Virus record (IMG/VR): IMGVR_UViG_3300012683_000008
Coordinates: 15,798 to 79,797 of that record
From: a virus
Length of the DNA stretch: 64,000 bases
Reading direction: 5' to 3' (one strand)
Numbering within the stretch: the stretch's first letter is position 1; the number at the start of each line of letters is the position of its first letter. Positions 5,052 to 39,361 of the stretch are shown in pieces. A program made the position numbers and the translations under genes. The notes below the pieces were generated by a model. That model did no database searches, was not told where the DNA came from, and was given only the letters and a program-made list of their open reading frames with translations.

Positions 5052-5663
5052 TTACGCAGGGGTTCTCTTGAACAGCTTCATCGGATTCGCTTTGGAGAGA
5101 GCGGACCCTACACTCTTTCCGACACTCTTCGCAGCGTTCCCGACTCCCTGAGCTGCCCTTCCTGCCACGCCCTTCAGGTCTTTGCCAACCTGGCTGACTG
5201 GAGTGAACCCGTAGTCGACCACCTTGCGCAGGCCCTTGGACTCCAGAGGAATGCCCTTGGCGAACTCGGCAGCGTGGGCCAGCTCGGGGATGTGCTTCGC
5301 CGCAGAGAGGTGTTGTCCAAGCTGCTGAAGACCTCCCATGCCCTTCGCCGCCCCAGCGGCTCTGTGCGCCGTCTCGTAGAGGTTGGTCAGCTTGGGATCA
5401 ACGCCGATGGCCATTGCATGACGCAGAGGAGCTGAGAGCATCGGCTTCCCCTGCATGGCTGTACGAGCTCCGACGCCGGCCACCTCTTGAGCGAGCCGAC
5501 GAAGCGGAGGAAGGTGGTGACCGAACCTGTTGAGAGCGTTCGTTGCCATGATCTTCCCGCCTGCGACCATGCCGGCCATGGCCATGGGATCGATCGCCGC
5601 CTGCTTCTTGTGAGCGATCTTCTCGACCTCGTCGAGGAATGCCTTGTACGTGGCGGGATGCAT
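5052..5663 (-). CDS. Putative internal head protein with FLDEVEKIA leader
   Basis: ATG overlaps upstream stop (TAATG); AFLDEVEKIA then Gly/Ala/Lys-rich amphipathic sequence. Confidence 0.7.
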   Translation of the reverse strand: MHPATYKAFLDEVEKIAHKKQAAIDPMAMAGMVAGGKIMATNALNRFGHHLPPLRRLAQEVAGVGARTAMQGKPMLSAPLRHAMAIGVDPKLTNLYETAHRAAGAAKGMGGLQQLGQHLSAAKHIPELAHAAEFAKGIPLESKGLRKVVDYGFTPVSQVGKDLKGVAGRAAQGVGNAAKSVGKSVGSALSKANPMKLFKRTPA

Positions 5664-6151
5664 TACCACTCACCGTAGAAGTTGTTCACGAAACGGTACT
5701 CCGAGAAGATGCCTCCACCCCAGGCGTTCTCGATGTTGATGGCGACCTTGATGCGCTGCTTCTTCTCTTCGTACGAGTTCTTGAAGAGCTGGATCCAGGA
5801 CTGAATGAAAGGCGTCTTGTCGCTGACGCCGACCTGGATGCCACCGTCGCTGAACTGGAGATGGTTCCGAGTCTGGAGGATGCCCACGGACTCGTAGAGC
5901 GAGATGACGGTCCCTCGAAGCAGGAGACTCGCCGAGGGGAAGTTGACGATACCGTAGTTCGTGAAGTGCGGAGTCGTGTTGAAGTCGTCGATGGCGTCGG
6001 CGATGGCCCAGACGATCTGCCGGTTGGAGCTCTCGAAGCCGGCGATAAGCCGGTTGAGCTCAGGGTAATCCCGAGTGAAAGTCCGCACCGTCTGGATGAA
6101 CCTGTTCAGTTCCAGACTTGCATTCGGGATTCCTGGGCCAAACTCGTCCAC
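5663..6151 (-). CDS. Putative head-tail connector/neck protein
   Basis: 162 aa, helical (AIADAIDDFNTTP...LLRGTV...RNHLQFSDGGIQV), downstream of capsid gene; inferred from position and pattern. Confidence 0.5.
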   Translation of the reverse strand: MDEFGPGIPNASLELNRFIQTVRTFTRDYPELNRLIAGFESSNRQIVWAIADAIDDFNTTPHFTNYGIVNFPSASLLLRGTVISLYESVGILQTRNHLQFSDGGIQVGVSDKTPFIQSWIQLFKNSYEEKKQRIKVAINIENAWGGGIFSEYRFVNNFYGEW

Positions 6152-6163
6152 GCCGCACCCCTG

Positions 6164-6496
6164 TTACTTCTTCTTCTTGGAATCGTCCTTCGACTCGGGC
6201 CTGGCCTCGGCCGGAATCTTGACCTCGACCTTCACCGTCTCTTCGAGCTTGACGACGTCGGAGGCCTTCTTGGCCGGCACTTCCTTCATCGCCAGCTCGT
6301 CGGGCGTCGGCTCGGGAACAGGCTCAGGCTTCGACCACCCCTTCGGGAGAGATCCGAAGGCGAGAATGCCTGCGTCCTGTAGGGCGAGGTCACGATCCGG
6401 AACGTGCTTCAGGTCGGCGTGCTCGCTCATCCCGTACCCCGGCATCGTCCGGCCACGGTAGTCCACGTGCTTGTCGGTCAGGTTGAAGACTTTCAC
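6164..6496 (-). CDS. Hypothetical protein
   Basis: 110-aa ORF coupled to neighbour (GTGA overlap). Confidence 0.65.
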   Translation of the reverse strand: MKVFNLTDKHVDYRGRTMPGYGMSEHADLKHVPDRDLALQDAGILAFGSLPKGWSKPEPVPEPTPDELAMKEVPAKKASDVVKLEETVKVEVKIPAEARPESKDDSKKKK

Positions 6497-7086: not shown

Positions 7087-7153
7087 CGACAGGTCCTTTC
7101 AGTTATTGCTGCTTGAAGGTCCAAGCTACTCCATCTTGGGCCCACAAACAGCA

Positions 7154-7185
7154 AGAGGAAGGAAGGAACATCCCTTCCTTCCTCT
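7154..7185 (-). terminator. Intrinsic terminator after major capsid gene
   Basis: 13-bp perfect stem AGAGGAAGGAAGG/CCTTCCTTCCTCT, 6-nt loop, then TGCTGTTTGT on minus strand. Confidence 0.7.
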
Positions 7186-7224
7186 CGGACTCAGCCAGTT
7201 ACGGCCAAGAGTCGATGGACTCGC

Positions 7225-8346
7225 TTAGAACTGGTCGACCTGGGGGTAGGTCAGGCCAGCGTCGGCACGGTTGTTCACCGTGGACAGGTTCTCCTCGGAG
7301 ACCGGCAGGGCGGCTGCGAAGCCGGTGTCGGTTGCGCCGGGGGTGACCGAGCCCGAGTAGAGCTCCAGCTTGACGACGGCGGCGATGTTGCCGAAGCCCA
7401 TGCCGATGTCTTCCCAGCTCATCCAGGTGATCAGGTTCGCGATCTTGTCGATGTAGAACTTGGTCTGGTTGAGGATGTAGAACCGGCCGAAGAACTCCGG
7501 CGCCGTGAAGCAGTAGATGTTGCCTTCACGGAGGAGGTCCGTCTTGATGGTCCGGATGATCTTCAGTCCGGTCACCGTGTTGGACTTCCAGCCCTCGGTT
7601 GCCGTCTCGCCGGCGATCGTCATGCCGACGTCCTGGATGGTCCAGGCCGAGATGTCGTCGTAGTCCGGCTCCGTGATGAGAACCCGCTCCGCACGCAGCT
7701 TCTTGCGGTGGAGCAGCTTCTTCAGCTTGATGAAGTCCGGCTTCAGCACCGGGTTGATCGTGAAGTTGTCCGTCGCCTGCGACAGAGCACCCTCACCCTT
7801 CACCACCGCCGAGCCGATGACCGTGGCGGCGAGCACCGCCGAGGTCCGGAAGCCCGTGGCCGAGCCGTTCACGTCGAGCTGCACCGCCTGGATGCAGGCT
7901 TCGACGTACAGCAGGAACTGCCGGTCTTCGATCTCCTGGATGTCCTTCACCGAGTTCTCTTCGATGATCTTGGTGATGGGCATCTCGTACGCCAGGAGCT
8001 CCTGCTCGTACTTCTCGAACTTCTCGCTCGCGATCGTGAAGAACGGGATCTCGTAGCGGGCCGCCCTGATGAGGCGAGCCGTGGGCTGGCCACGGAAGGT
8101 CAGCGCCATCGCCCGTGAGTTGGGCTCGATGTCGACGATCTTCACCAGCGTGTCGTGGTTGACCGACCGCTGGAGTTCGGTGCGCTGCACGTTCGTGGGA
8201 GGAACGATCTTTCTGGCGAAGCTGACTTCACGCAGACGGTCGCGGATGTACGACCCGCCGAACTCTGCGATCTTGTCCTTGCCCGCTGAGGATCCGATCT
8301 TCTCGAAGAACATCTCGTTGAGGACCTTTGCTGGGACTGCGCTCAT
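7225..8346 (-). CDS. Major capsid protein (HK97 fold)
   Basis: 373 aa, strongly biased codons, AGGAG RBS, own terminator; IRDRLRE.SFARKIVP and IEENSVKDIQEIEDRQFL spine-helix-like segment; downstream of protease and scaffold-like genes. Confidence 0.8.
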   Translation of the reverse strand: MSAVPAKVLNEMFFEKIGSSAGKDKIAEFGGSYIRDRLREVSFARKIVPPTNVQRTELQRSVNHDTLVKIVDIEPNSRAMALTFRGQPTARLIRAARYEIPFFTIASEKFEKYEQELLAYEMPITKIIEENSVKDIQEIEDRQFLLYVEACIQAVQLDVNGSATGFRTSAVLAATVIGSAVVKGEGALSQATDNFTINPVLKPDFIKLKKLLHRKKLRAERVLITEPDYDDISAWTIQDVGMTIAGETATEGWKSNTVTGLKIIRTIKTDLLREGNIYCFTAPEFFGRFYILNQTKFYIDKIANLITWMSWEDIGMGFGNIAAVVKLELYSGSVTPGATDTGFAAALPVSEENLSTVNNRADAGLTYPQVDQF

Positions 8347-8943: not shown

Positions 8944-9339
8944 TCACTCGATCGTGGAGAGATTGGCGGCGAAAGCATCGGCAGCGTTGTCTCCATCGCT
9001 GTCGCTTCCTTCGACCGTCACGTGGCCGCCTTCAGCCACCGAGGCGAGCTTCATCTGGGGGGCGGAGAGGTTGACTGCCTCTTCGAGGACCTCCAGCTTC
9101 TCGTGCTGACGAAGGCTGGCGACCTTTTCCTCCAGGCTGAGCTCGGGGTTCAGACCCTTGGACTCCATCGCCTTGGCGACCTTCTCGATGCGCTTGTCAC
9201 GCTCGAAGCCGGCGACCTTGGTCTGGAGCTCCTCGTTCTTCGCCTTGACCGTCTTGTTCTCCTCCGAGAGCGCCCGGAGGTTCTCGGCGGCCACTTTCAT
9301 CATCTGGCCCGCCTGTGCTGCACTGACTTTGTTCATCAT
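8944..9339 (-). CDS. Putative scaffolding protein
   Basis: 131-aa coiled coil with acidic C-terminus ending ADAFAANL; position before decoration/MCP genes. Confidence 0.5.
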   Translation of the reverse strand: MMNKVSAAQAGQMMKVAAENLRALSEENKTVKAKNEELQTKVAGFERDKRIEKVAKAMESKGLNPELSLEEKVASLRQHEKLEVLEEAVNLSAPQMKLASVAEGGHVTVEGSDSDGDNAADAFAANLSTIE

Positions 9340-9366: not shown

Positions 9367-10584
9367 TTACATCGAGGGAGCGGGCGTCGAAGTCGTGGAG
9401 GAGCCGGTCATGGGCATGCCCATGCTCTTCTTCTCCATCGCCTTCTTCATCTTGCAGTGCTTGCACTCGCCCTTCCCGTCGCACGTGCAGCCCTCTTCAG
9501 CGATCTTCTTGAGGAGCTCCCGTGCCGCTGCGATCTTCACGCCGCCTTTGGCGGCATTCCGCAGGTTCTCTTGGACCTTGGCGTCGTGAGCCTTGGACAT
9601 CATCGGCTCGGTGAGCACCTCGGCCATCAGCTTCTTCTGCGGCGCCTTCGCCTGAACCTTCTTGGCGTTGGTCGCGGCAGCGTTGGAATCGATCATCGAA
9701 CGAGCGCTGTTGGTGCCGCCCGACGGAGGCTTGGGGCCGTCACCCGACTTGGAGTCGAGCGTCTCGCCGCCCATCTTCTTCTCGACGTTGGCGATCTTGC
9801 CGAGGATGAAGTCGACGGCGGAAGCCTTCTTCTCGCCATCCTTCTTGTCGAAGGTGACGACCTCGGCCGGCTTGGTCTCTTCCTTGGACTCTTCGTCCTT
9901 GGGAGCCAGAGCAGCCTGGAGGCGGGCGACGGAAGCCGACTTCGGCTTCTCGGTCTTGGCCTGCTCCTCGACCTCGGCGGTGTCGTCTTCGTGACCGACG
10001 TCCTCGTTCAGGGTCGTCGGCTTCGGGGCAGCAGCGGAGCGGATCTTGTCCAGCACCGACTCGGCCGCCGTCTTCATGACGCCCTTCTTGGGGTACGGAG
10101 TCCCACCGGGACGCTTGGCGTGATCGTTCTTGACCTGGGTGGGGGCTGGTCCGCCGGCATCACCCTTCTGGCTCTCGGTCGACATCGGCACGTTGTGCGC
10201 CTTCGACTTGTCCTTGCCGTAGTTCTGCTTGCCGGAAACGGGCTTCATGACGGCGAGGGTCTGACCGCCACCCTTGTACTCGGCCCCGTGGTCCTGCTCG
10301 TCGGCCGACGTCTTCATGAGCTGATCGCCGACCGTCTCCAGCGCCGAGGCGAGCTTCTCGACCTCTTCTGGATCAGCGAAGTCGATCGCCGAGGCTTCCT
10401 TGTCCTTCTCCTCTTTCTCTTCCTTCACGGAGGGGACGTGGCCGTGTTCCTTCTTCTCGTAGTCGACGAGCTTCTTGACCTTCTCGTCCTTGCCTTCTGC
10501 GGCAGCGATCTTCACGCGGGAGTCGTCGATGATCCGAGCGACCATATCGGCGAGCGGAAGGTTGCCTGCGAGCTTTGAGATCAT
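9367..10584 (-). CDS. Putative prohead core/scaffold-like protein
   Basis: 405 aa, charged/low complexity, about ten K-x-A motifs, C-terminal CxC..CxxC. Confidence 0.6.
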   Translation of the reverse strand: MISKLAGNLPLADMVARIIDDSRVKIAAAEGKDEKVKKLVDYEKKEHGHVPSVKEEKEEKDKEASAIDFADPEEVEKLASALETVGDQLMKTSADEQDHGAEYKGGGQTLAVMKPVSGKQNYGKDKSKAHNVPMSTESQKGDAGGPAPTQVKNDHAKRPGGTPYPKKGVMKTAAESVLDKIRSAAAPKPTTLNEDVGHEDDTAEVEEQAKTEKPKSASVARLQAALAPKDEESKEETKPAEVVTFDKKDGEKKASAVDFILGKIANVEKKMGGETLDSKSGDGPKPPSGGTNSARSMIDSNAAATNAKKVQAKAPQKKLMAEVLTEPMMSKAHDAKVQENLRNAAKGGVKIAAARELLKKIAEEGCTCDGKGECKHCKMKKAMEKKSMGMPMTGSSTTSTPAPSM

Positions 10585-10596: not shown

Positions 10597-10857
10597 TTAC
10601 TGCGTCACGGGAGGAGGTGGGTTTGCCTTCATACTGCTAAGGTGGTCTTGAACGGGAGAAGTTTCTGGTGGTGTCTGTGGCTTTGAGACCAACTTGGGCA
10701 GCTTTGGCTTGTTGGCCATCACCGGCTTCGTTACCTGCGCAACCGATGATGCCGTGTTTTGAGTGGTGGTGGCAATCTTCTTGAGTTCGTCTGAGAACCC
10801 CAAGAACATCTCCAAGCTGATTCTTCTGTTGGACATGTTCGTCGTTTCCTCAGACAA
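10597..10857 (-). CDS. Small protein with FSDELKKIA leader
   Basis: 86 aa; GFSDELKKIA followed by Thr/Pro-rich peptide; start uncertain. Confidence 0.6.
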   Translation of the reverse strand: MSEETTNMSNRRISLEMFLGFSDELKKIATTTQNTASSVAQVTKPVMANKPKLPKLVSKPQTPPETSPVQDHLSSMKANPPPPVTQ

Positions 10858-10911: not shown

Positions 10912-11781
10912 TTACTTCGCAGCTTCCTCGGCCGGAGCCTCTTCTTCCTTGGCCGGGAGCTCGTAGCCGGCGTTGGCGATCATCGCCAGGGCCCGCTCGT
11001 CGACCTTCTGAGCGAGCAGAGCTGCCTGCTCCTCGTTGATCGAGCTCTTCTTCTCGCTCTCTTCCGTCTCCTGCTGGGCGTTCGGGTCGATCCCGTGCTC
11101 CTTCAGGATCTCGTGAGCCCGAACGACGGCGAGCTGATCGAGAGCGGAGAGCTGCTGCTCTTCCTCTGCCGGCTGCTCAGCCGATGCCTTCTTCGACTTG
11201 CGGCCGGCTGCGAAGCCAGCTCCTGCCGAGGCGGCGGCACCTGCTGCCATCGCCTTGCCCTTGTTCTTGGCCATGAAGTCACCGACCTTGCCTGCGCCCG
11301 ACTTCAGCGCCGCCTTGGCAGTGTCCTTGTGCTTCGAAGCCGCAGCGCCAGTCATGGCCACTGCGCCCTTCAGGTTGTCGAGCTTGTTGGCCGTCTTCGT
11401 CTTGGCAGCGGCCTCCTTCTCGATCTCCTTGCGCTCCGCCACGTAGGCGTGCGCCATCACGCGACCCAGGTAGTCGGCCTCGGCGATCTTCTCCTGCTCG
11501 GGCGTGAGCTGCTCGCCCTCTTCGCCGGCCGTCTTCTCTTCGCCCTCTTCACCTTCGTCGCCTTCTGCTTCGGTCTGCTCTTCTGCCGGAGTCTCCTCGG
11601 CAGCCGAGTCGCCATCGAGGATCGAAGCGGCCAGCGTCTCTGCCTCTTCGTCGCTCAGGCCACTGACGTCGACTGATTCGTCAGACGCCAGCTTCTCGGC
11701 GAGAGCTGCCGTGGCGATGGCTTCGAGGTCGGTCTCGTCGGCCTGGTTGGTCTTGTACACCTCTGCGAGCTTGGGATCCAT
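10912..11781 (-). CDS. Acidic prohead core/scaffold-like protein
   Basis: 289 aa; KIAEADYLGRVMAHAY helix; KLAS, KTAG, KEAA, KKAS motifs; AAGGAG RBS. Confidence 0.6.
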   Translation of the reverse strand: MDPKLAEVYKTNQADETDLEAIATAALAEKLASDESVDVSGLSDEEAETLAASILDGDSAAEETPAEEQTEAEGDEGEEGEEKTAGEEGEQLTPEQEKIAEADYLGRVMAHAYVAERKEIEKEAAAKTKTANKLDNLKGAVAMTGAAASKHKDTAKAALKSGAGKVGDFMAKNKGKAMAAGAAASAGAGFAAGRKSKKASAEQPAEEEQQLSALDQLAVVRAHEILKEHGIDPNAQQETEESEKKSSINEEQAALLAQKVDERALAMIANAGYELPAKEEEAPAEEAAK

Positions 11782-11840: not shown

Positions 11841-13502
11841 CTAGGCCTGGGGGTACTGCGGAATCACTCCGACATCGATCGGAGTGTCGAGAAGCAGGTC
11901 CCGGTTCTGAAGATGAACGCCCGAGAAGTACGAAAGCGAGTCGAGAGAGATCATCGGGGCGCTGGCGGTCTTCGTGAACATGTCTACCAGTTGGCTCCCA
12001 ACTACTGCGTCTCTCAACTTCGGGTCGTTCTGAATCACTTCTTCGGCCTGCGACAGCTTCTGCATGAGCGAACGACGGTAGCCGTTGTAGGCAGCGCCGA
12101 TCTTACTCAACAAAGGATGGTCTACCTGAGTCTCAGTGGGAAGAGGCTTTTTGCTTGTCACCGTGATGCGAATCACTCTTCCCTGTAGAGGACTTCCAAG
12201 ACCGCTTCTTTGACCGATCAGACCTTCCAAGAGCTTCTTCAGTTCTTCATTGAAACGGCTCTTGTCGACGGCCACTGATTCGTCGAAGTCTCCCGTCTGC
12301 TTGAAGACCTCATTCTTGTCGTCGAGCTTGTCTGCGAGCCCACCCTCGCCCATGCGCATCAGCACCAGCCTCTGGAACTCACGAGGCTTGAGGACGATGC
12401 CCATCATCCCAGCCGTCGAGCAGCAGGAGCCGAGGTCGTGCTCAGCCATCTCATCCAGGGCGCTCCTTGAGATGGTGATCTCGTCCTTCTCCAACTTCGG
12501 AAGAGACGACATCGAAAAGGCACCAGCCGGGACGGTCTTGACGATCTCACTGAGCTTGAGCTGAGCGGCCGTCTTCGTCGGCTTCTTGCCAGTCATGGCG
12601 AAACCGAGCTTGTCGATCTCCGAACACTCGTCTGGGCATCCGCACTCGCAGTGCGCTGAAGCGGTCTTCTCGACCCCGTAGGTGCTGGGCACCTGGATCA
12701 TGAAAGCGACCTCAGACGAGAGACGAGGCATCGAGCATACGTCGCCGAGACACACATACTGGCCTCTCGACGCCAGCTTCGCCATCACCTTGGCCGTCTT
12801 GTCCGCACCGATGAAGACGAACGAGATGTCGAAGAAGCGAGGGTGGGTGTTCTCGACGCAGCACCTCAGCCCGTTCGGGAGAATCTTGTTCGGGCCGTAC
12901 AGATGCCGCAGGTGCTCTGGCGGCAGCATGTGCTCGCAGTAGTCGTCCTTGGTCTTGGACGAGTGGCGGCACACCATGCAGATGTCGTAGGGGACCTTGC
13001 AGCCCATCGAGACGTCGGGGAACTCCCCGGCGTCGATGCGAGCGATGATGCCGTCTGCACCTTCGAGCTTCGCCTTCTCCCTGTTGAGCTGAACGATGAG
13101 CTCGACCCGCTTCATGTACGGGTTGAGCAGAGAGAGGACCGGCTTGCCGAAAGCCCGGCTCGGGTCCTTGTTCACGTGGTGCTGAAAGGCGTGGGCCTTG
13201 AGGAACGTCAGGTAGCCGTAGTCGTCACCCTGGTGAGCGAGAGCGTTCCAGGGAAAGTAGTCGGCGTTGATGTTGGAGCCGAAGTACTCACCAGCTCCGA
13301 GCGCATTGACGAGAACGTAGGCGTTCTCTTGGCGGTTCTTCTTGGAGATCTGCGAGAGGAAGTGGCGAAGTCTGTCGCCGTTGGCCCAGTCGGCAAAGGC
13401 TGGCGCACCGGCTGTCTTCTCGAAAGCCCCGGCTGAGCCGAAAAGGGACTGACAGAAGATGCCGGAAGCGGTCTTGCCGAAGAATTGGACCTGCTTGTCC
13501 AT
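11841..13502 (-). CDS. Prohead maturation protease (HK97/assemblin-like) with Cys/His insert
   Basis: Motif order N.N.D.F, FQHH, VSMG (candidate nucleophile Ser), FFDISFVFIGAD matches phage prohead proteases; CMVC..YCEH insert; upstream of scaffold and MCP. Confidence 0.65.
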   Translation of the reverse strand: MDKQVQFFGKTASGIFCQSLFGSAGAFEKTAGAPAFADWANGDRLRHFLSQISKKNRQENAYVLVNALGAGEYFGSNINADYFPWNALAHQGDDYGYLTFLKAHAFQHHVNKDPSRAFGKPVLSLLNPYMKRVELIVQLNREKAKLEGADGIIARIDAGEFPDVSMGCKVPYDICMVCRHSSKTKDDYCEHMLPPEHLRHLYGPNKILPNGLRCCVENTHPRFFDISFVFIGADKTAKVMAKLASRGQYVCLGDVCSMPRLSSEVAFMIQVPSTYGVEKTASAHCECGCPDECSEIDKLGFAMTGKKPTKTAAQLKLSEIVKTVPAGAFSMSSLPKLEKDEITISRSALDEMAEHDLGSCCSTAGMMGIVLKPREFQRLVLMRMGEGGLADKLDDKNEVFKQTGDFDESVAVDKSRFNEELKKLLEGLIGQRSGLGSPLQGRVIRITVTSKKPLPTETQVDHPLLSKIGAAYNGYRRSLMQKLSQAEEVIQNDPKLRDAVVGSQLVDMFTKTASAPMISLDSLSYFSGVHLQNRDLLLDTPIDVGVIPQYPQA

Positions 13503-13508
13503 CAGTCG

Positions 13509-14234: not shown

Positions 14235-14476
14235 CCAACTCCTGGCGGTAGGGGCTGCCCCTGGGCTTCTTGGAACTTCTTCTTGTTCTTGTCGTACTCG
14301 CCCTTGGCACCTGGGATCACCGTCGCAGCGGTGAGAGTAGCGACTGGATGCTTTGCTGCGGTGATGGCAGCTTTCCCGGCAAGCGTGCCGAGGACCCCGA
14401 GGATGGCCATCTTCTCCATTGGCGCTCTCCGAAGAGCGATGGAGATCGAGGCCAGCTTAGCGAGCCGAGCGAGCAA
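14231..14476 (-). CDS. Small hydrophobic hypothetical protein
   Basis: 81 aa, overlaps both neighbours; KLAS/KMA motifs. Confidence 0.55.
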   Translation of the reverse strand: MLARLAKLASISIALRRAPMEKMAILGVLGTLAGKAAITAAKHPVATLTAATVIPGAKGEYDKNKKKFQEAQGQPLPPGVG

Positions 14477-15404: not shown

Positions 15405-15467
15405 GTGATTTAGACTCCGAATCTGAAGAGAGTCAGTCTGTTGGAGGGTAGTTGTTGGGAGGACAAG

Positions 15468-16753: not shown

Positions 16754-16797
16754 AGAGAGTACCGGGAGGATGAGCTCGCTCCCGGTATTTCTCTTAG
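16754..16797 (+). terminator. Hairpin terminator followed by TTAG, between convergent genes
   Basis: AGAGAGTACCGGGAG / CTCCCGGTATTTCT stem. Confidence 0.65.
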
Positions 16798-28600: not shown

Positions 28601-31600
28601 GAGCTTCAGGTGCAGCAAGGTCGGAACCGGACCTGGTCGGTTGCCGGCGCCCACGAAGATGGGAGACGGCATCGGCTCCGCCATGCGGATGAAGGACCAC
28701 TTCTCGCCCTCGATCCCGCCCGTGGCGTGAGGGTCGTAGAGACCACCCTTCTCTTCCTTCAGGTCCTTCGCACGGAGGGTGTACTTGCCCTTGGTGATTT
28801 CGTTCTTGCCGTTGTTGGCGAGACGAAGAGTGTCCTTGTCCGTGAGAGGCAAGAGACGGATCTCCGTCCCCTCCTTCTGCACGTTGATGCCTGAGCCTTT
28901 GAGCAGCGCCTCGAACTTCTTGTACGAGAACGGGACCTGAGGAGGAGGCGGCTCGAACCCCTGCTGGATGCGGACCCAGAAAGAGTCGTCCTGCTTGTCG
29001 GACTTGTACGTCGCCATCTCTCGAACGTTGTGCCGAGCTCCGTGTCCCAGCATCGAGTAGAGCTCAAGCTGGCCGAAGCCCTGCCCACCGTGGGCACCGC
29101 CCTTCACCGGCTGACGATCGAGGCTGTAGGTCAACGGCTTGTTGTCGAGTGTCGTGCCACCGCCACGAACGCTGAGCTTCTTCTCGACCTGGTGACGCAG
29201 CTTCAACAGGTACTGCGGCCCGACCAGGACCGAGCCCATCACCCTCGACGGGTCCTTCGGGTCGAAGACGTGCTCTTCATCGTTGATGCCGTGGTGCTTG
29301 AGCTCATCAACAACCTGAGAACGGTAGTCGTGGTTCGGTCCTGAGAAGTTGTTGACGACATACGGCTTGCCCGTCTTCTCGGCGATCTTTCCGGCGGCGG
29401 TCTCCAGAAGTTGTCCGACGTTGATGCGTGTAGGAACTCCTGAAGGGTTGAGAAGAACTTCGAGGGGCTTGTGCTCACCTTTGGGATCCTTCGTGAACGG
29501 CATCTCGTGATCGGGAATGATCTGCGTGATGATGCCCTTGTTTCCGTGACGACCAGAGAGCTTGTCTCCGACCACCATCTGCTCTTCGGTCCTGACGTAG
29601 ACCTTCACGCCCTTGCCGTTCGGCTGATGAACGACTCGAACCACCTCGCCCATGTGGTCCTCGTCCCAGACGAGGCTCTTGTCCTTGTAGGCGAAGAACT
29701 TGTTGTAGCGAGAGCCGAGGGCCGCCAAGGCGCTGCCGCCCTTGGTGTTGGTGTTCTTGGACAGGGCAGTGATCAGCACTGAACCAGGCTTCACCTTCGT
29801 GCCGACCTTGATGACACCGTGCTCGTCGAGAGAGTCGAACTCCTCTTTCGTCATCTCCGTCGCCCGACGGGAGGCGAAGGCGTGCCAGGACTTCTTGTTG
29901 ACCGTATCGTTGTCCGGATCGATCTCCAGGTTCTTCCGGTACAGGTGCTCGGAGGTCAGCTTCTTGGCTGCCGTCTCTGAGATGACGATGCCGTCTTCGA
30001 AGTTGTAGCCCTTGTACGGCATGTACCCGACCCGGAGGTTCGTTCCGATCGCGAGCTGGCCGTCTCTGGTGAAGTTCGTATCGGCCAGGAGCTGGCCTTG
30101 CTTCACCGAGTCTCCGACCTTCACCTGGGGAGTCGAGTGCATCATCCCCTTGTCGTCGTTGAGCGGGAAGTGGTTGTAGAGGTGGACTTCGTGCTTGCTC
30201 TTCCCCTCGCCGATGACGATGAAGTTCGGGGTCACGCTGGTGACCTTGCCGGAGACTGGAGAGTTGATGGAGCTGAACGAGCCGATGACCTTCTCGAAGG
30301 TGCTGGCTCCTTCCGTCTTTGATTGCACCAGTGGCGCCTCACGATGCTTCAGTGAGATGGCCTGCTCCATCTGCTTGTCGGCCATCGACACACGGTTTCC
30401 TTGGTCGGTTGGTAGGAAGGGAATGAGGTTCGAGGTGTAGTCGAAGAGACCCTTGGCCGAGGGAAGGACGTACGTCGCCTCCTTGAACGGCCGGGTCTCG
30501 ATGGCCCCGCCTGGAAGCTTCATCTTAACGTTGGCGGAGATGGGTACTGGCTTGCCCTTCTCCCACTTCACCTGGTCAGGAAGCACAGCAGACGCCTGGT
30601 GAAACGCTGGCACCCCCACGTACTCGATCTTGCCGGAGGCGATGGAGAAGGCGGGTGTCTCCAGCTCCTTGCCGTTCTTCCGAACGTTGGCTGCCAGGTA
30701 GAGCGTGATGCCTGTGCGCTCTGACTCCGGGGTGTGCATCGGGTCGAGGAACCCGAAGTGGCTCGGGTTGATGACCTGCATCTGCTCGGTGATGGCGTTC
30801 TTGTTCTTGATACCGCCGAGGTCAGAGAAGAGCGTCGTCTTCCGGTGACCCGCCATCATCTGGAGCGGGTTGGTCTGGTCGTACCGCTCGATGATCTTGG
30901 TGCCGCCGCTGAGGAAGAAGGCGTTGATGGGCTTCTTGAACAGGTCAGGAGAGACGATCTCCGTGATGGTCTTCTTGTGGTCGACCGTCTGACGCAGCTT
31001 CACCTTGATGTTCTTGGCGTTCCTCGCCAGCATCTCGGGAACGAAGTCCTCGACAGAGACGACCTCCTTGAAGGCGAGGCTGTCACGGTCATCCGGCTCC
31101 TGGGTGCCACGAGAGACGCCCAGAATCTTGTTGGCTGCCAACTTGAGCACTTCGCCGTTCACCTGAGTGAAGGGCTTGCCCAGCGTCACCTTCGTGGTGT
31201 CAGGAAGCAGGGCCGTGCTGTCGAAGAAGTGGTGAACGTAGGCGTGGTGACCGGCGTCGTCCTTCGGTACCTCAGCGTCCTCTTCGTTCGTCCTCTTGAA
31301 GAAGTCCTGAAGAGCCTTCTCGTTCTTCTTGTCGAACTTGTTGGAGTGGAAGATCTCCGCTCCCCACTGGTGCTCCAGCTCGTCGTCCGAGACGCCCATC
31401 GACTTCATGATGGGGTAGAGCGGAATGTGAGCTGAGCCGTACTTGAACGAGAACTTCTTCGTGCGAGGGTTCAGGTGGATGGAGAAGTTGCTGCCCAGCT
31501 TGCGAGCCAAGTTGAACTCAGATTCGAGCTCGCCGTTCTCCTGCACTCGGGCGTAGACGCCTGACTTGAGGCGGAAGAGGTGGTCGACCTGGTACTCGTT

Positions 31601-31912
31601 GCCGCTGACGATGAAGCCGTAGCGGCTGGTGAGCTTCGGAATGGTGGCCAGTGTGGCCTTCTTCTTGTCGATGACCTGCCCTGTCGTCTTGTCGATGAGA
31701 GACAGGTTGGCGACGACCGGCACGCCCCAGGTGCGCTCGTTGTCCTTGGCGTCGGCCTGGGACTTGATGTCACCGATGTCGAGCTTGTCGTCGACTCCGA
31801 TGCTGTCGAGAACGATCTTCTGTCGCTTGCCCTCGAACGGGAAGTACGCACCGATGGAGCTGACGACGTTCTTCTTCAGCGTCTCGAAGCTTGCTTCTGG
31901 GGTGATGTCCAC
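25673..31912 (-). CDS. rpoBC: Single-chain DNA-directed RNA polymerase, fused beta-beta' subunits (2079 aa)
   Basis: beta motifs DQTNPL, HTPE, YNFEDGIVISE, GDKLSGRHGNKG, LLNPSGVPTRINVGQ, GGQGFGQLE; beta' motifs LPIIPPVFRP, KRDPALH, NADFDGD (27680-27700), SGARG, GARKG, DCGT, RSPLKC..ICAKC, GEPAVQMAMDAFHSGG. Confidence 0.95.
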   Translation of the reverse strand: MDITPEASFETLKKNVVSSIGAYFPFEGKRQKIVLDSIGVDDKLDIGDIKSQADAKDNERTWGVPVVANLSLIDKTTGQVIDKKKATLATIPKLTSRYGFIVSGNEYQVDHLFRLKSGVYARVQENGELESEFNLARKLGSNFSIHLNPRTKKFSFKYGSAHIPLYPIMKSMGVSDDELEHQWGAEIFHSNKFDKKNEKALQDFFKRTNEEDAEVPKDDAGHHAYVHHFFDSTALLPDTTKVTLGKPFTQVNGEVLKLAANKILGVSRGTQEPDDRDSLAFKEVVSVEDFVPEMLARNAKNIKVKLRQTVDHKKTITEIVSPDLFKKPINAFFLSGGTKIIERYDQTNPLQMMAGHRKTTLFSDLGGIKNKNAITEQMQVINPSHFGFLDPMHTPESERTGITLYLAANVRKNGKELETPAFSIASGKIEYVGVPAFHQASAVLPDQVKWEKGKPVPISANVKMKLPGGAIETRPFKEATYVLPSAKGLFDYTSNLIPFLPTDQGNRVSMADKQMEQAISLKHREAPLVQSKTEGASTFEKVIGSFSSINSPVSGKVTSVTPNFIVIGEGKSKHEVHLYNHFPLNDDKGMMHSTPQVKVGDSVKQGQLLADTNFTRDGQLAIGTNLRVGYMPYKGYNFEDGIVISETAAKKLTSEHLYRKNLEIDPDNDTVNKKSWHAFASRRATEMTKEEFDSLDEHGVIKVGTKVKPGSVLITALSKNTNTKGGSALAALGSRYNKFFAYKDKSLVWDEDHMGEVVRVVHQPNGKGVKVYVRTEEQMVVGDKLSGRHGNKGIITQIIPDHEMPFTKDPKGEHKPLEVLLNPSGVPTRINVGQLLETAAGKIAEKTGKPYVVNNFSGPNHDYRSQVVDELKHHGINDEEHVFDPKDPSRVMGSVLVGPQYLLKLRHQVEKKLSVRGGGTTLDNKPLTYSLDRQPVKGGAHGGQGFGQLELYSMLGHGARHNVREMATYKSDKQDDSFWVRIQQGFEPPPPQVPFSYKKFEALLKGSGINVQKEGTEIRLLPLTDKDTLRLANNGKNEITKGKYTLRAKDLKEEKGGLYDPHATGGIEGEKWSFIRMAEPMPSPIFVGAGNRPGPVPTLLHLKLEDIDAIMAGKQDLNGKTGGAAIKSALQKLDVDAELRGAKERLKTVKGAQLDRLHKKVKFLTALKENGMSPAEAYMTHYLPIIPPVFRPMTPTDRGDVNTPPIVQHYKNFAIVNQALKDWDPAVFTESDRKPLQSALWDAYKALQAVGDYRPVYDESSGRRKLKGILETLGGSGEGDQPKDAYFQSKLVKRRQNLSIRSTIIPEPNLHIDQVGLPKNAAMELYKPFVVAQLGRWGMDPLVARKEMKDGTDFAFKALEEVVKDRPILLKRDPALHKFSVMAFQPKLIEGKAIQIHPLVTGGFNADFDGDTMAGTVPLSREAVDEAKKMFPSRNLFSPTTGSVMYTPSQEAMLGLHLMSKWGKKTTKSFTDGAGVDRAADKHEIEHTDIIKLNGKDTTLGRMRIAAWLPKTMHMREGVLHDPSYEINKKTMSHMATDLAKNHSEHFAQAIDALKDLGNEHSYQTAFSIGLKDLKPLEGRDRILAVAHKEADQAKKTVKGKDELDAKLVSIYSKATEELDASARHQLAGTSNRLATMVYSGARGKPEQLRQMIAAPMLMQDATNRTIPTPVTRSYSEGLDIGDYWLAQHGARKGTLQRAQGTSEPGAMSKEILNSTMNYLITSEDCGTTHGVLMPLEHEDIHDRFLAKPYETKDGKVIKAGTLVTPEIWSRLKNSKHDKVVVRSPLKCHKGEGICAKCFGLNENGTLHSEGTNVGILAGQSMGEPAVQMAMDAFHSGGIAGSTRGAMSVSRFEKLNNLLKVPKKLKNEATLSKVTGKVTDIKKDAAGGHDIFIGDERHYVPVKLPLMVQIGSEVKKGDAISEGHVNPLHLLKYTDMSNVQNHLTNELYNGLYKKEGVRRRNIETVVRALTNLTKVVEPGDSDYTPGDIIALSKVEERNREMAKGARQVVHRPMLQSVNQLPMRSKDWMARLNFQQIRSTLQEGVATNMKSDLHGTHPIPGVAYGAEFGKAPPSKAKYVY

Positions 31913-35160: not shown

Positions 35161-35162
35161 GT

Positions 35163-37187
35163 TCAGCTCACCGGGGCGGGACGACGAGAAGGCTTCTGCT
35201 GCGGAATCGGACTCTGCGTCGGGTTCAACGGATCGGCCTGTGATCCCTGCTCGCTCTGGAGGAGACGGAAGACCACCATGTAGAGCTGGGGGTTCGACAT
35301 CTTCATCCGGTTGAGCTCTTGGTACTTCTGAGCCTCAGGCATGCCCTGGAGCTTCTCGGCTGCACGCTTGGCGAGGTACAGGATGTTCGCACCTCCACCC
35401 TGCATGCCCATCGTGAGTGGGCTCTGCATCTGCTGCGGAACACCTTCCTGAGGTGCCTGCTGGGCATTCTCCATCGAGACCGAAGAGCCCGGAGGCATCG
35501 CTGGGTCGACCGCCTGCCCGTCGAGCATCTCGCCTTCTTGCCCCGTCTGACCTCCGCCCTCTTGCCCTGGTGCCCCTCCTCCTGGAGGAGCCCCTTCCAT
35601 GCCTGGCGCTCCGCCCTGGGGCATGGCGGCCATCATGATCTGCTGGGCCTGAGCCTGGTAGCGGGCCGTGACGACCTGCACTTCGCCCTGCACACCAGCC
35701 TGAGCGAGCTGCATCTTCCTCTGGTACTCCAGCTCCTTGTCGAGCTCGCCCTTCCGGCGCTCGGCCTCGACGATCGGGTCGAAGTCGGCTTCTTGGAGCA
35801 TGGTCTGCTTCGAGATCATCATCGCCTGGTTCATCTGGAAGAAGAACGCAGTGCGCTGGAGATCGTCCGCCATCTTGAACCGGCGCATGTGGGCCTTCAC
35901 TACCGGCCAGCCCATGAACTCGGCGATGCGTTTGATGACGAACTTGTTGAGCATCAGGTGGTGGTCCGTGCGGTACCCGATGAACATGTTCTCCAGCATC
36001 CGCATCGAGACGTTGGAGCCGGAGTACTGCATGCCGCCGAAAACGAACTCTTCGGGCACGCCCATGCCAGCCACGATGTGCCGGCTCCAGACTTCCATCT
36101 CCTGGTAGAGGCCGAGGGCCTTACCGTCTCCGCCGATGGACTCGTTGCCGATCGGCAGCGGCATGATGGGGATGTAGTTCTGGTCGTACTTCCACTTGGC
36201 GATCTCCGACTCGATCCGACCCTTCCAGTTGTCGAGGTTGATCGTGGTGTACGGGTCGGCCGTGCCACCGTTGCCGGTCGGGAAGAGAACTCGCAGAGGA
36301 ACGATGTGCTCCTGAGCGATGGCTTCCTGAGCCTTGCGGAGGATCTGAAGGTAGAACGTATCCTTCAGCACCGGGAAGATGAGCGGCATGCCCCAGCCCA
36401 TGTCCTTCTGGCTGATGATGGGCCGCTTGAAGACGAAGATGTTGTCGTCGGAGAACCGGATGAACTTGTTCCGACGCATCGCCTCGATGAACGTGTCGGG
36501 CACGGTGTCGAGAACGTTCTTCTTCCCGAGGATGATGTCGTTCTTGAGCTGGATGGGGATCTCGAAGGTGTAGACCGGATCCGCTCCTGCGAAAGCTGGG
36601 TCGACGTTGATGTACTCGGGGTTCCACCGCATCAGGCGAATGCGGCGGACGTCTCGCTCGAAGTAGTCGAGCACCTTCGCCGGGCCGTAGTGGCTGCACT
36701 TGTCGCACTGGATGATGTAGTCGAAGTTCTTCCAGGTGTAGGCCAGCTTCGAGGCCTTCTCCTTGTGCTTGCAGCGCTCGCAGATGAGCCACTTCGTGTA
36801 CGGGAAGTGAACCGTGACGACGCACATCCCGTAGGTGTAGTAGTCGAGACCGACCTCGATCTGAAACGCTCGGTACCGCAGCATCTCTCCGAGAAGTGTC
36901 TCCCACTTCTCTTTGACTTCTTTCCTCTCCTCGTCGACGACGATCTCCGTCACCGGGTACTCGCTCATCTTGTGGACCACTGCGTTGATGAGCGGATTGA
37001 CGAGGTAGTAGTACCGGCACCACCTCATCAGCGCCTTCATCGAAGGCGGGAGGTACGTGTGGCCGATGTCGAAGAATGGAGAGGGGTATCGGACGCCGCT
37101 CCGGCTCATGCCGTCAGCGGTACGCCCACGCTGACCGGAGAACCGGGACGTTCCCGAGAAACCAAGACCAAGATTGTCGAAGCTCAA
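35163..37187 (-). CDS. Portal protein with zinc-ribbon insert and Q/P/G-rich C-terminus
   Basis: YYYLVNPLINAVVHKMSEYP, GLDYYTYG, WGMPLI, IVPLRV, IVAGMGVPEEFVFGG.YSGSNVSMR; CERC..CDKC. Confidence 0.78.
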   Translation of the reverse strand: MSFDNLGLGFSGTSRFSGQRGRTADGMSRSGVRYPSPFFDIGHTYLPPSMKALMRWCRYYYLVNPLINAVVHKMSEYPVTEIVVDEERKEVKEKWETLLGEMLRYRAFQIEVGLDYYTYGMCVVTVHFPYTKWLICERCKHKEKASKLAYTWKNFDYIIQCDKCSHYGPAKVLDYFERDVRRIRLMRWNPEYINVDPAFAGADPVYTFEIPIQLKNDIILGKKNVLDTVPDTFIEAMRRNKFIRFSDDNIFVFKRPIISQKDMGWGMPLIFPVLKDTFYLQILRKAQEAIAQEHIVPLRVLFPTGNGGTADPYTTINLDNWKGRIESEIAKWKYDQNYIPIMPLPIGNESIGGDGKALGLYQEMEVWSRHIVAGMGVPEEFVFGGMQYSGSNVSMRMLENMFIGYRTDHHLMLNKFVIKRIAEFMGWPVVKAHMRRFKMADDLQRTAFFFQMNQAMMISKQTMLQEADFDPIVEAERRKGELDKELEYQRKMQLAQAGVQGEVQVVTARYQAQAQQIMMAAMPQGGAPGMEGAPPGGGAPGQEGGGQTGQEGEMLDGQAVDPAMPPGSSVSMENAQQAPQEGVPQQMQSPLTMGMQGGGANILYLAKRAAEKLQGMPEAQKYQELNRMKMSNPQLYMVVFRLLQSEQGSQADPLNPTQSPIPQQKPSRRPAPVS

Positions 37188-37918
37188 GTAGTCCTCTCAG
37201 GAGGTGGATTGGCGGGTGCCGTGTGCTTCTTCTTGAGGTTTCGAGCGACCTCAACACCCTTGCCTACCAGTCCGCCAGCCTTTCTTCCAATCTGTCCGCC
37301 GACGATGCCGCCAGCCAGTCCGAAAGGAGAGCCGATGATGCCACCGACCTGGTCTCCGATTGCCGTTCCGACACGAACCGTCCGGCTACGTCCTTGCCGC
37401 ATCGGGTCTTCCTTCGACAGGGCCTCATGACCACCGGCGACGAGACCTGTGACAGCGAGAGCCTTCATGCCTGGGCCCATCTTGCCGAAGTCGGTGACGG
37501 AAGTCTGCCAGCCCTTCTTGAAAGACTGGACTGGGTTCGCGAACGCACTGACGGCGCTGCCTGCGTTCCGAATGCCACCCTGCACTGCACCGGGAGTGGC
37601 TTTGACGAGTCCCAATGCAGCAGAGGGAGCTGACCGAAGTCTGGAGCCGAGGTTCTGGATGAGGCCTGCATTCTTGAGGAGTCCAGGCAAGAACATGGCG
37701 CCGGTCGTCAGAGCCAGGCCTTTCCCTGCGCCCTTCAGAGCTCCGCCAAGGCGGCTCTTCTTCTCGCCTTTCTCATTGTGTCCTGGGCGCAAGGCGCCGT
37801 AGCCAGAACCAAGAAGGGCTCCCGCCATCATTATTTCGGAGACGGTGGTTGCCTTCTTCTCCATGGCGGCGATCTTCTCCAACTCATCCATGAAGGACAG
37901 GTAGGTTGCGGTTCTCAT
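37184..37918 (-). CDS. Glycine-zipper protein with FMDELEKIA leader
   Basis: SFMDELEKIA; GGIIGSPFGLAGGIVGGQIG; ATGA overlap. Confidence 0.7.
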   Translation of the reverse strand: MRTATYLSFMDELEKIAAMEKKATTVSEIMMAGALLGSGYGALRPGHNEKGEKKSRLGGALKGAGKGLALTTGAMFLPGLLKNAGLIQNLGSRLRSAPSAALGLVKATPGAVQGGIRNAGSAVSAFANPVQSFKKGWQTSVTDFGKMGPGMKALAVTGLVAGGHEALSKEDPMRQGRSRTVRVGTAIGDQVGGIIGSPFGLAGGIVGGQIGRKAGGLVGKGVEVARNLKKKHTAPANPPPERTT

Positions 37919-38850
37919 GAGGCACCCAGCCACGAACGCAGAGAGACGAGCTGCTCGGCGAGCTGCCGTCTCCGAACGTTCATGTAGTCACGAGAGACGA
38001 TGAGCTTGGCGACCTGAACGTCGACCTGGGTCTCTTGGAGTTCGATGTCCATCTCAGACTTCTTCCGAACTTCTTCCCAGCGGGTTTGGACTGGATCCGG
38101 GTCGTACTTCACGATCAGCGCCATCTTCTTCCCGAGTCCTGCCTCCAGAAGCTCTTGCTTGGGCCGCATCGAGAGGCCCTGCTCTGGGTCGAACTTCTCC
38201 GTGCAGTTGTCGCAGACGCCGTCGTGGAAGGCTGCCAGGAACGTCGAGTTGCAGTCTCCGCACTGGTAGAAGGGCCTGCTCACCTCGACTTGGATGAAGT
38301 CGAGAGGAGACGGGACGTAGAACACGTCTTCGTGCAGAACGGCGGCACCCATGTACTGCTTCACCTCGTCGGAGAACTCTTCACGACGAAGCGTGTCCAT
38401 GATGTCGATGCCGGCGTAGAGCTGTTCCAGGGACGGAGCCTGCATGATGTCGAAGTTGGGGACGTTGTTGTTCAACGCCTGAATGACCTTCTCGAAGACC
38501 TGCCACTGCATCCAAGGGGCATGGGAGACGTGCATCGTCTGCACGGCCATGATCTTGGCTCGATTGTGTTCCGAGACGTTGCTCTTGAACATGTCGAGAA
38601 TGGAGGCCCAGATGGTCTCCGGCTCCCAGAGAAGCCAATCGAGCTGGAACGCCTTGATGAGGGCGAAGTCCAGCACGATGGGGTGAGCATCGTGGTGAGT
38701 GAAGAGGTTCCTCAGGGTGAGAGGAACGCGGAAGTCGGAGTCGGTCTTGGCCAACTCCTTCTCGACAGCGCCTCCCATGACGGGTGCCGTCTCTTTCACC
38801 TTCTCGGCTTCTGACAGCCGAGAATAGAGGTCGTCTTCTGGAGTCCTCAA
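37915..38850 (-). CDS. Hypothetical (virion-module) protein with zinc ribbon
   Basis: Start reassigned to TTG 38850 after GGAG; WLLWEPETIW; CGDC..CDNC. Confidence 0.65.
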   Translation of the reverse strand: MRTPEDDLYSRLSEAEKVKETAPVMGGAVEKELAKTDSDFRVPLTLRNLFTHHDAHPIVLDFALIKAFQLDWLLWEPETIWASILDMFKSNVSEHNRAKIMAVQTMHVSHAPWMQWQVFEKVIQALNNNVPNFDIMQAPSLEQLYAGIDIMDTLRREEFSDEVKQYMGAAVLHEDVFYVPSPLDFIQVEVSRPFYQCGDCNSTFLAAFHDGVCDNCTEKFDPEQGLSMRPKQELLEAGLGKKMALIVKYDPDPVQTRWEEVRKKSEMDIELQETQVDVQVAKLIVSRDYMNVRRRQLAEQLVSLRSWLGAS

Positions 38851-38863
38851 AGCAACTCCGTTC

Positions 38864-39361
38864 TTACAACGAAATGGCTCTCTTCGCAGCAGCCGCAGGA
38901 TTCCAGGCGTGTCCACCGGTTGCCACATTGGCAGCGAGGTGGGAAGCCCGGCTCATGTTGTTCGGGCTGGTGAGGGCCTTGCCAGCTTGCGCCATCGGCT
39001 TCGCCACACCTTTGGCGGCCTTCGCAGCGTCGGCCAGACGGTGCATGTTCATCATGGCGCCCATCGAAGGGGCGGCATGCTTCGGCATCTTCGAGGCGAG
39101 GCCCCGAAGCTTGGAGAGACCGCTCTTGCCGGCCTTCAGGGCATCACCTGCGTGCTCTGCGGCGACGCTGGCTCCGAGAAGACCGAGACCGCCCGCTTCC
39201 CACTTGGCCTTGGTCTTTTCTTCTTTCGGAGCGGTCTTGCTCATCAACGTGTGAGCCACAGGCACGCCGAGAGCTCCGAGACCGGCCATGTCCAGCGCCG
39301 GCCCTAGAAGGGCGATCTTCTCCAGCTCATCCTGGAACGACAGCATCGTTGCGAGGTGCAT
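38864..39361 (-). CDS. Gly/Ala-rich protein with FQDELEKIA leader
   Basis: SFQDELEKIA then two hydrophobic helices (LDMAGLGALGVPV; EAGGLGLLGASV). Confidence 0.7.
   Translation of the reverse strand: MHLATMLSFQDELEKIALLGPALDMAGLGALGVPVAHTLMSKTAPKEEKTKAKWEAGGLGLLGASVAAEHAGDALKAGKSGLSKLRGLASKMPKHAAPSMGAMMNMHRLADAAKAAKGVAKPMAQAGKALTSPNNMSRASHLAANVATGGHAWNPAAAAKRAISL

Follow-up and report, generated by a model that had tools for sequence, protein, structure and literature searches.

Why should five otherwise dissimilar proteins of one virus share nearly the same short peptide, in most of them at the N-terminus? This question is raised by a stretch of 64,000 nucleotides, hereafter called the window, which forms the right-hand 64 kb (positions 15,798 to 79,797) of the 79,797-bp virus contig IMGVR_UViG_3300012683_000008 in IMG/VR. 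A preliminary description of the window had proposed that the peptide, of the form F-x-DELEKIA, is a modular tag that loads diverse proteins into the phage head and is then removed by the prohead protease, in the manner of the internal proteins of phage T4. Our analysis establishes both the motif and its modularity. On balance, we favor the reading that this leader is a portable N-terminal propeptide resembling the capsid-targeting sequence (CTS) of T4, and that it would be clipped at a K-x-A site by the phage's own prohead protease.

The contig has no terminal repeats and a G+C content of about 60%. Relatives of its major capsid protein are encoded in 258 of 260 candidate IMG/VR stretches. 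The relatives of the phage are about 130-210 kb in size, and several of the capsid-protein relatives are encoded by contigs measuring 177-209 kb, of which one has terminal repeats; the window's contig is therefore only part of a larger genome. The nearest cultured phages, Salmonella phage Arash and three Vibrio phages, are distant, with capsid protein identities of 28-30%. Below, G000 denotes the window's own contig, and G001 and G004 are two complete relatives. Unless stated otherwise, coordinates are those of the window and features lie on the minus strand, which carries a structural gene block from position 1 to about 40.8 kb.

A modular leader on unrelated proteins

The pattern F-x-D-E-[LV]-[EK]-K-[IL]-[AG] has five matches in the six-frame translation of the window, all of them on the minus strand and inside open reading frames (ORFs). 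A degenerate DNA pattern spanning all five copies also gives five matches against 0.00 expected, and not one of 100 dinucleotide shuffles contains any match; the leader motif in the window is not due to chance. The five strong copies listed in the preliminary description are confirmed in position, each in a real ORF of the minus strand, and the copy in protein C is internal as described. With the motif Phe counted as position 0, the leader of protein A, M-HPATYKA-FLDEVEKIA (5613-5663; core FLDEVEKIA, 5613-5639), runs from Met at -8 to Ala at +8 and scores 23.3 bits against the leader profile described below. It heads a 203-residue Ala/Gly/Lys-rich protein of no known family (5052-5663), whose start ATG overlaps the stop codon of the upstream gene (taATG). 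The core of leader B, FSDELKKIA (10771-10797; 17.8 bits), lies in a Pro/Ser/Thr-rich ORF between two scaffold-like genes (10597-10857; 86 residues counted from the first TTG), and orthologs of this protein retain the leader. This ORF has ATG codons at -4 and -13 relative to the motif Phe, and the probable start is the one 13 codons upstream of the motif, at 10836. Leader D, M-RTATYLS-FMDELEKIA (37868-37918; core FMDELEKIA, 37868-37894; 22.0 bits), is followed by a second site, MEKKA, and heads a 244-residue Gly/Ala-rich protein (37184-37918) encoded immediately upstream of the portal gene. Its start ATG overlaps the upstream stop codon (ATGA), and leader genes occupy the syntenic place in G001 and G004. 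Leader E, M-HLATMLS-FQDELEKIA (39311-39361; core FQDELEKIA, 39311-39337), is the best match to the profile with 26.4 bits. It begins a 165-residue protein (38864-39361) that has a hydrophobic Gly/Ala-rich segment directly after the leader, an ortholog in G001 and a GAGGA sequence 5-9 nucleotides upstream of its ATG.

In protein C (232 residues, 20606-21304) the copy M-DSVSIAA-FFDELEKLG (21032-21082; 20.5 bits) covers residues 75-91, with the core FFDELEKLG (21032-21058) starting at residue 83. The in-frame ATG at -8 follows a purine-rich stretch, so that a second, shorter product starting with the leader is possible; the copy may thus be either an internal clip site or the start (M75) of that second product. 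An ATG stands exactly eight codons before the motif Phe in four of the five window copies (A, C, D and E), and the start contexts of these four fit real N-termini. When codons for the same residue are compared among the window copies, the first and second codon positions are identical in 124 of 128 comparisons and the third in 45 of 64, which indicates that the peptide rather than the DNA is conserved. A DNA-level repeat as the origin of the motif was rejected on this codon-position agreement. The weaker copy of the preliminary description, YFSELRKSA (4767-4793, in a 157-residue protein encoded at 4386-4859), is present and ends in K-x-A, but it is absent among the 45 leader-profile matches listed, which reach down to 2.2 bits, and we do not count it as a leader. 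Just outside the window, the same contig carries a sixth copy, LFDELDKIA (G000 13295-13699, minus strand; 14.7 bits), and a hydrophobic segment rich in Gly comes after it.

The leader is not restricted to the window. A relaxed form of the motif was matched 69 times on the capsid strand of 80 capsid-anchored loci (1.07 Mb), 47 of which have at least one match, and never on the opposite strand. All five near-complete relatives bear 2-6 strict copies, 24 in all, with none for a reversed-pattern control. A scan of the genome and its relatives with a motif profile, as the preliminary description had suggested, gave 24 matches of 9.7-26.4 bits (6 in G000, 7 in G001 and 11 in G004) before the next match at 6.1 bits, with reversed sequences reaching at most 4.6 bits; the profile was trained in part on the scanned sequences and also recovered copies outside its training set. 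Across IMG/VR, F-x-DEL-[EQ]-KI-[AG] occurs in at least 124 stretches. Eighty of these contain 84 motif ORFs, a handful of which resemble chance matches inside long ORFs, and in 66 of the 84 an ATG lies 3-14 codons upstream. Two or more copies are found on about a dozen contigs among the matches listed. The variant F-R-x-E-L-E-K-I, of similar information content and seen on some kinase homologs, gave 38 single matches on 38 contigs, a background-like distribution. Five of five further multi-leader contigs also encode the protease family described in the next section; the leader travels with this type of protease.

What follows the leader is highly variable. The relaxed motif is present in 94 distinct ORFs from the window plus 104 related loci. 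Once the leader is removed, 91 of them leave at least 30 residues, and BLAST sorts these remainders into 42 clusters (E<1e-5), the largest of which has 11 members. This number is approximate, since the relaxed expression also picks up a few sequences that are not leaders and low complexity makes the cluster borders indistinct. A logo of 84 distinct leaders shows Met at -8 in 32 of 81, a small residue (A, G or S) at -1 in 81 of 84, F at 0 in 63, D at +2 in 76, E at +3 in all 84, L at +4 in 67, E or Q at +5 in 54, K at +6 in all 84, I at +7 in 74, and A, G or S at +8 in all 84. After +8 there is no conserved position. The consensus is therefore M-x7-F-x-D-E-L-(E/Q)-K-I-(A/G), about 17 residues, and it is written with synonymous codon variants among the relatives. 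The proposal of a modular tag on diverse proteins is borne out by these data, as the relatives show the leader on dozens of unrelated proteins with conservation ending exactly at the Ala/Gly. Some leader genes in the relatives lie in head or tail blocks and adjoin genes for the portal, the tail sheath or a DarB-like/minor-head protein. We found no occurrence of DELEKIA and its variant strings in the open PMC and bioRxiv literature.

A protease-scaffold fusion and K-x-A sites in the head module

If the leader is clipped, which protease would clip it? Upstream of the scaffold-like and capsid genes the window encodes a 553-residue protein (11841-13502) that is conserved and syntenic in the relatives. 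The head gene order is protease, q289, B, g405, g131, g155 and capsid protein, and it is the same in G001 and G004. The sequence of this protein has no match in PDB at E values up to 10 and none in Pfam even at an E value of 5, and the protease was identified solely through structural comparison. An AlphaFold model built from 32 orthologs (pLDDT 72.8) has T4 gp21 as its first-ranked Foldseek match, with a weak E value of 0.16. With VIA-align, residues 49-232 of the model superimpose on gp21 (5jbl_C) with Z 10.0 and an rmsd of 3.0 over 135 of 166 residues, on the protease of varicella-zoster virus (VZV; 1vzv) with Z 8.3, and on the HSV, HCMV, KSHV and EBV proteases with Z 5.6-6.8. All 32 orthologs have H108, H109 and S165, and nearly all of them keep H90; these are candidate catalytic residues. 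By tblastn, the protease domain matches Vibrio phage D69 (8e-39), Arash gp222 (4e-32), Bacillus phage G gp19 (9e-15), a Gordonia phage gene annotated as 'capsid maturation protease' (7e-8) and a Rhodococcus phage gene annotated as 'prohead protease' (3e-4). Judged by the model, the protein is a prohead protease of the T4 gp21/herpes-assemblin fold (residues 49-250, 12753-13358) fused to a C-terminal, scaffold-like helical domain, residues 330-553 being helical. Some protease orthologs reach 931-1674 residues (L004:1915-6939, L023:2824-6843, L007:3689-6484 and L037:2706-6224) because they contain inteins with Hint and LAGLIDADG domains, L004 having three LAGLIDADG stretches, and one ortholog bears an InPase domain (PF18823, 9.4e-32).

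The tripeptide that ends the leader recurs in this protease. Four K-T-A islands stand within otherwise variable stretches of the alignment of the 32 orthologs, each in a segment modeled with pLDDT below 50. K29-T-A31 (FEKTAG, 13410-13418) lies in the N-terminal segment (low pLDDT over residues 13-35). K279-T-A281 (VEKTAS, 12660-12668; 246-286) lies in the linker after the protease domain and K316-T-A318 (12549-12557; 305-326) in the same linker region, while K511-T-A513 (11964-11972; 510-513) is found about 40 residues before the C-terminus. The Lys is invariant in the first three islands (K29, K279 and K316) and almost invariant in the fourth (K511). A similar site, D-K-I-A, occupies residues 24-27 (8266-8277) of the 373-residue major capsid protein (7225-8346; phrog_2522, 3.9e-10); 57 of 60 orthologs retain the form [EDQ]K.[AGS] there, and we regard the site as a probable propeptide cut. 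The scaffold-like proteins g131 (8944-9339), g405 (9367-10584) and q289 (10912-11781) also have conserved [ED]K-x-A sites. The sites of the scaffold-like proteins are kept in 21/21, 17/21, 37/48 and 7/9 orthologs, each above the identity of the flanking residues, and a chance D-K-K-A of the large terminase, taken as a control, is kept in 0 of 27.

These sites are specific to the head module. The pattern [ED]K[ILVMT][AG] occurs 24 times in minus-strand ORFs against 5.4 expected and 3 times in plus-strand ORFs against 2.6 expected, in a crude ORF set that includes some spurious ORFs and lacks some real genes. Its occurrences cluster in the stretch from the protease to the capsid gene, and it is absent from the fiber and terminase genes and, except for ORF 42973-43473, from the plus-strand genes beyond 41 kb. 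In two complete relatives only head-module genes are significantly enriched for [ED]K-x-A (4 of 228 and 2 of 207 genes). Further head-module genes of the window, z241, y81 and g359 (13509-15536), bear [ED]K-x-A sites as well. These results give the earlier proposal of removal by the prohead protease independent, if indirect, support in so far as such a protease is identified and K-x-A recurs in its linkers, in the capsid N-terminus and in the scaffold-like proteins, with enrichment only in the head module. The implied cutting rule, a small residue that Ser often follows, differs from the Glu rule of T4. Three Ala/Gly/Lys-rich proteins of the window (2838-4376, 4386-4859 and 14231-14476) have no F-x-DEL and carry EK-x-A or RK-x-A sites; the first, of 512 residues, has EKQA and EKRA sites and no leader. 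To judge from their sequences, these three are possibly head-internal proteins loaded via another route.

Sites of this kind are also found outside the clade. In the head module of Vibrio phage D69 (L250 18463-22170), a 270-residue protein has eight K-x-A-[SA] sites and the protease homolog four to five, and K-x-A-S is frequent both in D69 and in the head module of the window. The 40-kb stretch around the D69 protease gene gives at most 3.9 bits against the leader profile and contains no full leader. Arash has no D-E-L-x-K-I-[AG] pattern, and the best profile match in the 25-kb stretch around its capsid gene (7.9 bits) falls in an unannotated ORF on the reverse strand. The full leader therefore appears specific to the uncultured clade, whereas the K-x-A-S habit is wider. 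As a cultured phage with a head module rich in K-x-A-S, D69 would be a practical system for the K-x-A cutting rule.

Cargo proteins and the proposed loading mechanism

The five leader proteins of the window are rich either in Ala, Gly and Lys or in Pro, Ser and Thr, and a single hydrophobic Gly/Ala-rich segment is present in several of them. Together with 18 leader proteins of two relatives, the five match no Pfam or PHROGs family above threshold. The sole leads from these library scans are a sub-threshold Pkinase match and one PHROG of unknown function; a glycine-zipper Pfam match among the cargo is weak (E 0.046). Protein A has no ortholog in the ORF set of the related loci (E<1e-6, coverage at least 50%), suggesting that leader cargo turns over fast.

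One cargo family can be assigned to a fold. A leader-tagged protein of about 295 residues in a complete relative (L113:17718-18626, which is G001 157718-158626) has weak similarity to bacterial Ser/Thr kinases (StkP, 1.7e-4). Its AlphaFold model (pLDDT 86.8) matches PknA (Foldseek, 1.8e-7), PknB and at least 500 PDB chains at E values up to 0.001, all of them kinases among the matches listed. According to this model the family has a Ser/Thr-kinase fold, and its leader-tagged members are possible injected enzymes that modify the host. No homolog was noticed in the window, in which no search aimed at one was made. Fifty homologs are found on contigs of up to about 215 kb, and their N-terminal peptides differ by group, with the canonical leader in 18 of the 50 and the F-R-x-ELEKI variant, a Trp-rich peptide or others in the rest. 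Alignment of 36 homologs shows K-x-[AS] at the end of every N-terminal peptide, immediately followed by the conserved start of the mature protein; K15 and A18 are invariant. To us this looks like a natural swap experiment, in which the address would vary and the junction stay fixed. In the Trp-rich group (P0015, P0018, P0020-P0027 and others) the peptide ends in W-K-x-A at the same junction; no relatives of the genomes of this group were found in IMG/VR or the phage collection.

How might such a leader work? K-x-A is common to all probable substrates and F-x-D-E-L is confined to the leaders, which suggests a division into a clip site and an address. From the sequences we infer cleavage, the exact scissile bond, a docking partner, packaging and ejection in the following way. 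The K-x-A ending would be the recognition site of the protease with the gp21/assemblin fold, while F-x-D-E-L, together with the fixed distance to the Met, would form an amphipathic helix that serves as the address. This helix would dock the tagged protein to a common prohead receptor, either the scaffold core or the inner capsid surface, and the tagged proteins would be built into the prohead. The activated protease would then clip the leader at or beside K-x-A and, in the same step, trim the N-terminus of the capsid protein, excise itself from its own linkers and chop up the scaffold-like proteins. The freed cargo would remain in the head and be delivered with the DNA. Since conservation ends at +8, the residue there is small and Ser frequently follows, the sequences suggest a cut after the Ala/Gly, which would be a herpes-like rule rather than that of T4. 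A complex prediction for protease residues 40-250 with residues 1-40 of protein D scored 0.34 against 0.00 for the best of three controls. Of 157 solved complexes, 116 reach the mark used, as do 2 of 215 mismatched pairs; at scores of 0.60 or below, only 18 of the 157 do so, along with both of the passing mismatches. With a contact agreement between runs of at least 41% and a partner pLDDT of at least 43, this prediction lends weak backing to recognition of the leader by the protease.

Several observations weigh against a clipped N-terminal targeting propeptide. Besides the copy in protein C, several copies in the relatives are internal, for example at residue 233 of a 348-residue protein. Other leader genes in the relatives adjoin a dCMP deaminase, a ligase-like or a sigma-factor-like gene; as the internal-protein genes of T4 are dispersed too, we do not regard these metabolic-gene neighbors as decisive. 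In the AlphaFold model the kinase leader is part of one continuous, confident helix (residues 3-30) and is not obviously a flexible propeptide. The breadth of the cargo also rests on a cluster count that is soft, as noted above. Finally, in an excerpt of a published account the characterized gp21-type phage proteases, those of T4, phiKZ, 201phi2-1 and SPN3US, all cut after Glu (PMC5694885), so that a cut after the invariant Glu at +3, instead of one after Ala/Gly, may be the actual event.

What else could account for a leader of this kind? A serious alternative, although in our view an unlikely one, is that it serves cleavage only, as an extended substrate or exosite or as a pro-segment that keeps pore-forming or enzymatic cargo inactive, and that the proteins find their way into the prohead independently of it, for instance through their Ala/Gly-rich bodies. 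In favor of this alternative, no part of the whole scheme is better supported than the K-x-A logic, head proteins without F-x-DEL (the 512-residue protein, y81 and z241) bear such sites too, and many cargos have hydrophobic Gly/Ala-rich segments. However, F, D, E and L are conserved as strongly as K and A and yet are missing from the protease's own sites and those of the scaffold, and a mere cut site needs no extreme N-terminus of the kind that the Met at -8 and the ATG codons 3-14 codons upstream imply. The helix of the kinase model, which joins leader and mature protein, and the position of D and E directly upstream of the portal gene would instead suit a permanent amphipathic docking helix that binds the portal, scaffold, tail or a chaperone and is never cleaved, its likeness to K-x-A being a coincidence. 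We consider this rather improbable, since conservation ends exactly at A/G, K-x-[AS] stands at one and the same junction in each of the 36 aligned kinase homologs despite their very different N-terminal peptides, and the same tripeptide marks the disordered linkers of the protease.

Somewhat less probable again is a membrane or secretion signal of small non-virion proteins acting in lysis, superinfection exclusion or at the host envelope. Such a signal would fit the single hydrophobic Gly/Ala-rich segment of several cargos, with their weak glycine-zipper match, and the leader genes outside structural blocks. It does not fit a leader which, as read off the sequences, is acidic and amphipathic and thus unlike a signal peptide, and which also heads a soluble kinase fold; neither does it agree with the location of all window copies in the structural block on the structural strand, and the restriction of K-x-A to the head module would be left unexplained. 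A relic of common descent, or a DNA-level repeat acting in recombination or regulation with no peptide function, is very improbable. Although some cargos are alike in their Ala/Gly/Lys-rich composition, so that part of them could be distant paralogs, the third codon positions vary while the first two are kept, synonymous variants occur among the relatives, the cargo clusters are numerous and include a kinase fold, and the opposite strand has no matches. A stronger form of the targeting-propeptide reading goes further than the evidence that we have gathered here, and we offer it as a tentative proposal that may well prove wrong. In this form, F-x-DEL-x-KIA would be a sufficient, portable label that is read by one prohead receptor throughout a widespread clade of uncultured phages of about 130-210 kb. 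It would load 6-11 proteins per genome from more than 40 families, a quickly changing set that includes a Ser/Thr kinase and would be delivered together with the DNA, in concert with a gp21-fold protease that follows a herpes rule.

Known systems and neighboring genes

The principle of a leader that loads a protein and is then clipped is already known from T4 and phiKZ-like phages. In T4, according to part of a published account, the internal proteins are anchored to the core through a CTS of 10-20 residues that gp21 later cuts off (PMC5694885). The same excerpt describes this CTS, found on IPI-III and Alt, as a short N-terminal propeptide on unrelated proteins, including an enzyme, that ends in the protease cut motif by which capsid and core proteins are also trimmed (PMC5694885). 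The leader described here would be similar in all these respects, with about 17 residues, a kinase fold among its cargo and K-x-A as the putative cut motif. However, there is no sequence similarity between the two. The present leaders end in K-[ILV]-[AGS], mostly K-x-A/G, whereas T4 has x-x-Glu, and only 54 of 84 have E or Q immediately in front of the Lys, so that they do not belong to the T4 CTS by homology. The present leader is also far more uniform, occurs clade-wide in uncultured phages with some copies internal, and has a putative function. For phiKZ and SPN3US, the available portion of the source reports that many head-internal proteins are processed at one protease motif, that the protease cuts itself, and that conserved N-termini on diverged paralogs are thought to be CTS-like (PMC5694885). 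Their propeptides are mostly longer than 100 residues and their motif is A/S/G-x-Glu, unlike the uniform 17-residue tag and the K-x-A of the present clade.

A second parallel leads to the herpesviruses. Besides the similarity in fold to the assemblins given above, the 553-residue protein resembles herpes pUL26 in its order of parts: the protease comes first, a disordered linker bearing a conserved site follows, and after it come a C-terminal helical domain and another conserved site close to the end of the chain. In the layout of pUL26 given in part of a published description, protease, release site, scaffold and maturation site follow one another (PMC4498786). The predicted sites of the K279 and K511 islands would correspond in position to the release site and the maturation site, respectively. 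Herpesvirus proteases cut after a small residue that precedes Ser, and many of the present sites read K-x-A-S. The differences are that the present virus is a bacteriophage with an HK97-type capsid protein (phrog_2522), that the best structural match of its protease is T4 gp21, and that its sites have an invariant Lys two residues before the Ala. We know of no herpesvirus counterpart of the N-terminal cargo leaders. The cargo-loading peptides of encapsulins are likewise short conserved peptides that send diverse cargo inside an HK97-fold shell. These tags are usually C-terminal and uncleaved and involve no protease, in contrast to the N-terminal and putatively clipped leader. What sets the present system apart is that its tag is highly uniform, that a gp21-fold protease-scaffold fusion would follow a K-x-A rule, and that the cargo changes fast throughout a clade.

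If the targeting-propeptide reading is true, this clade has an unusually clean and easily recognized capsid-loading code, and a 17-residue tag would allow the injected cargo of uncultured phages, apparently including a kinase, to be listed from sequence. The gp21-type protease family would gain a non-Glu, herpesvirus-like cutting rule, and the leader would serve as a compact tag by which foreign proteins could be packaged into phage heads, a use to which the T4 CTS has already been put. Should the label prove sufficient and the protease follow the herpes rule, capsid assembly in phages and herpesviruses would share one design, an anchor peptide combined with a clip site, and the tag would be a packaging handle ready for use.

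The structural block includes a fiber-like protein of more than 1100 residues with Kelch repeats and an fn3 domain (1-2828), which extends past the window edge, and also encodes the large terminase (16794-18614), a baseplate-like protein and the 674-residue portal protein (35163-37187; phrog_16240, 1.4e-7) directly downstream of D. Beyond 41 kb, the long ORFs of the plus strand are presumably replication genes (helicase, primase and polymerase), these labels being unchecked against any library. Inside the structural block, the ORF at 25673-31912 joins the beta and beta' modules of an RNA polymerase in one protein of 2079 residues (Rpb2_6, 2.5e-63; Rpb1 domains) that has no leader. RNA polymerase subunits rank among the most abundant virion proteins of Arash, as stated in an excerpt of its description (PMC10585845). 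By analogy, the fused polymerase of the window could be a virion polymerase, and we regard it as a candidate for this role.

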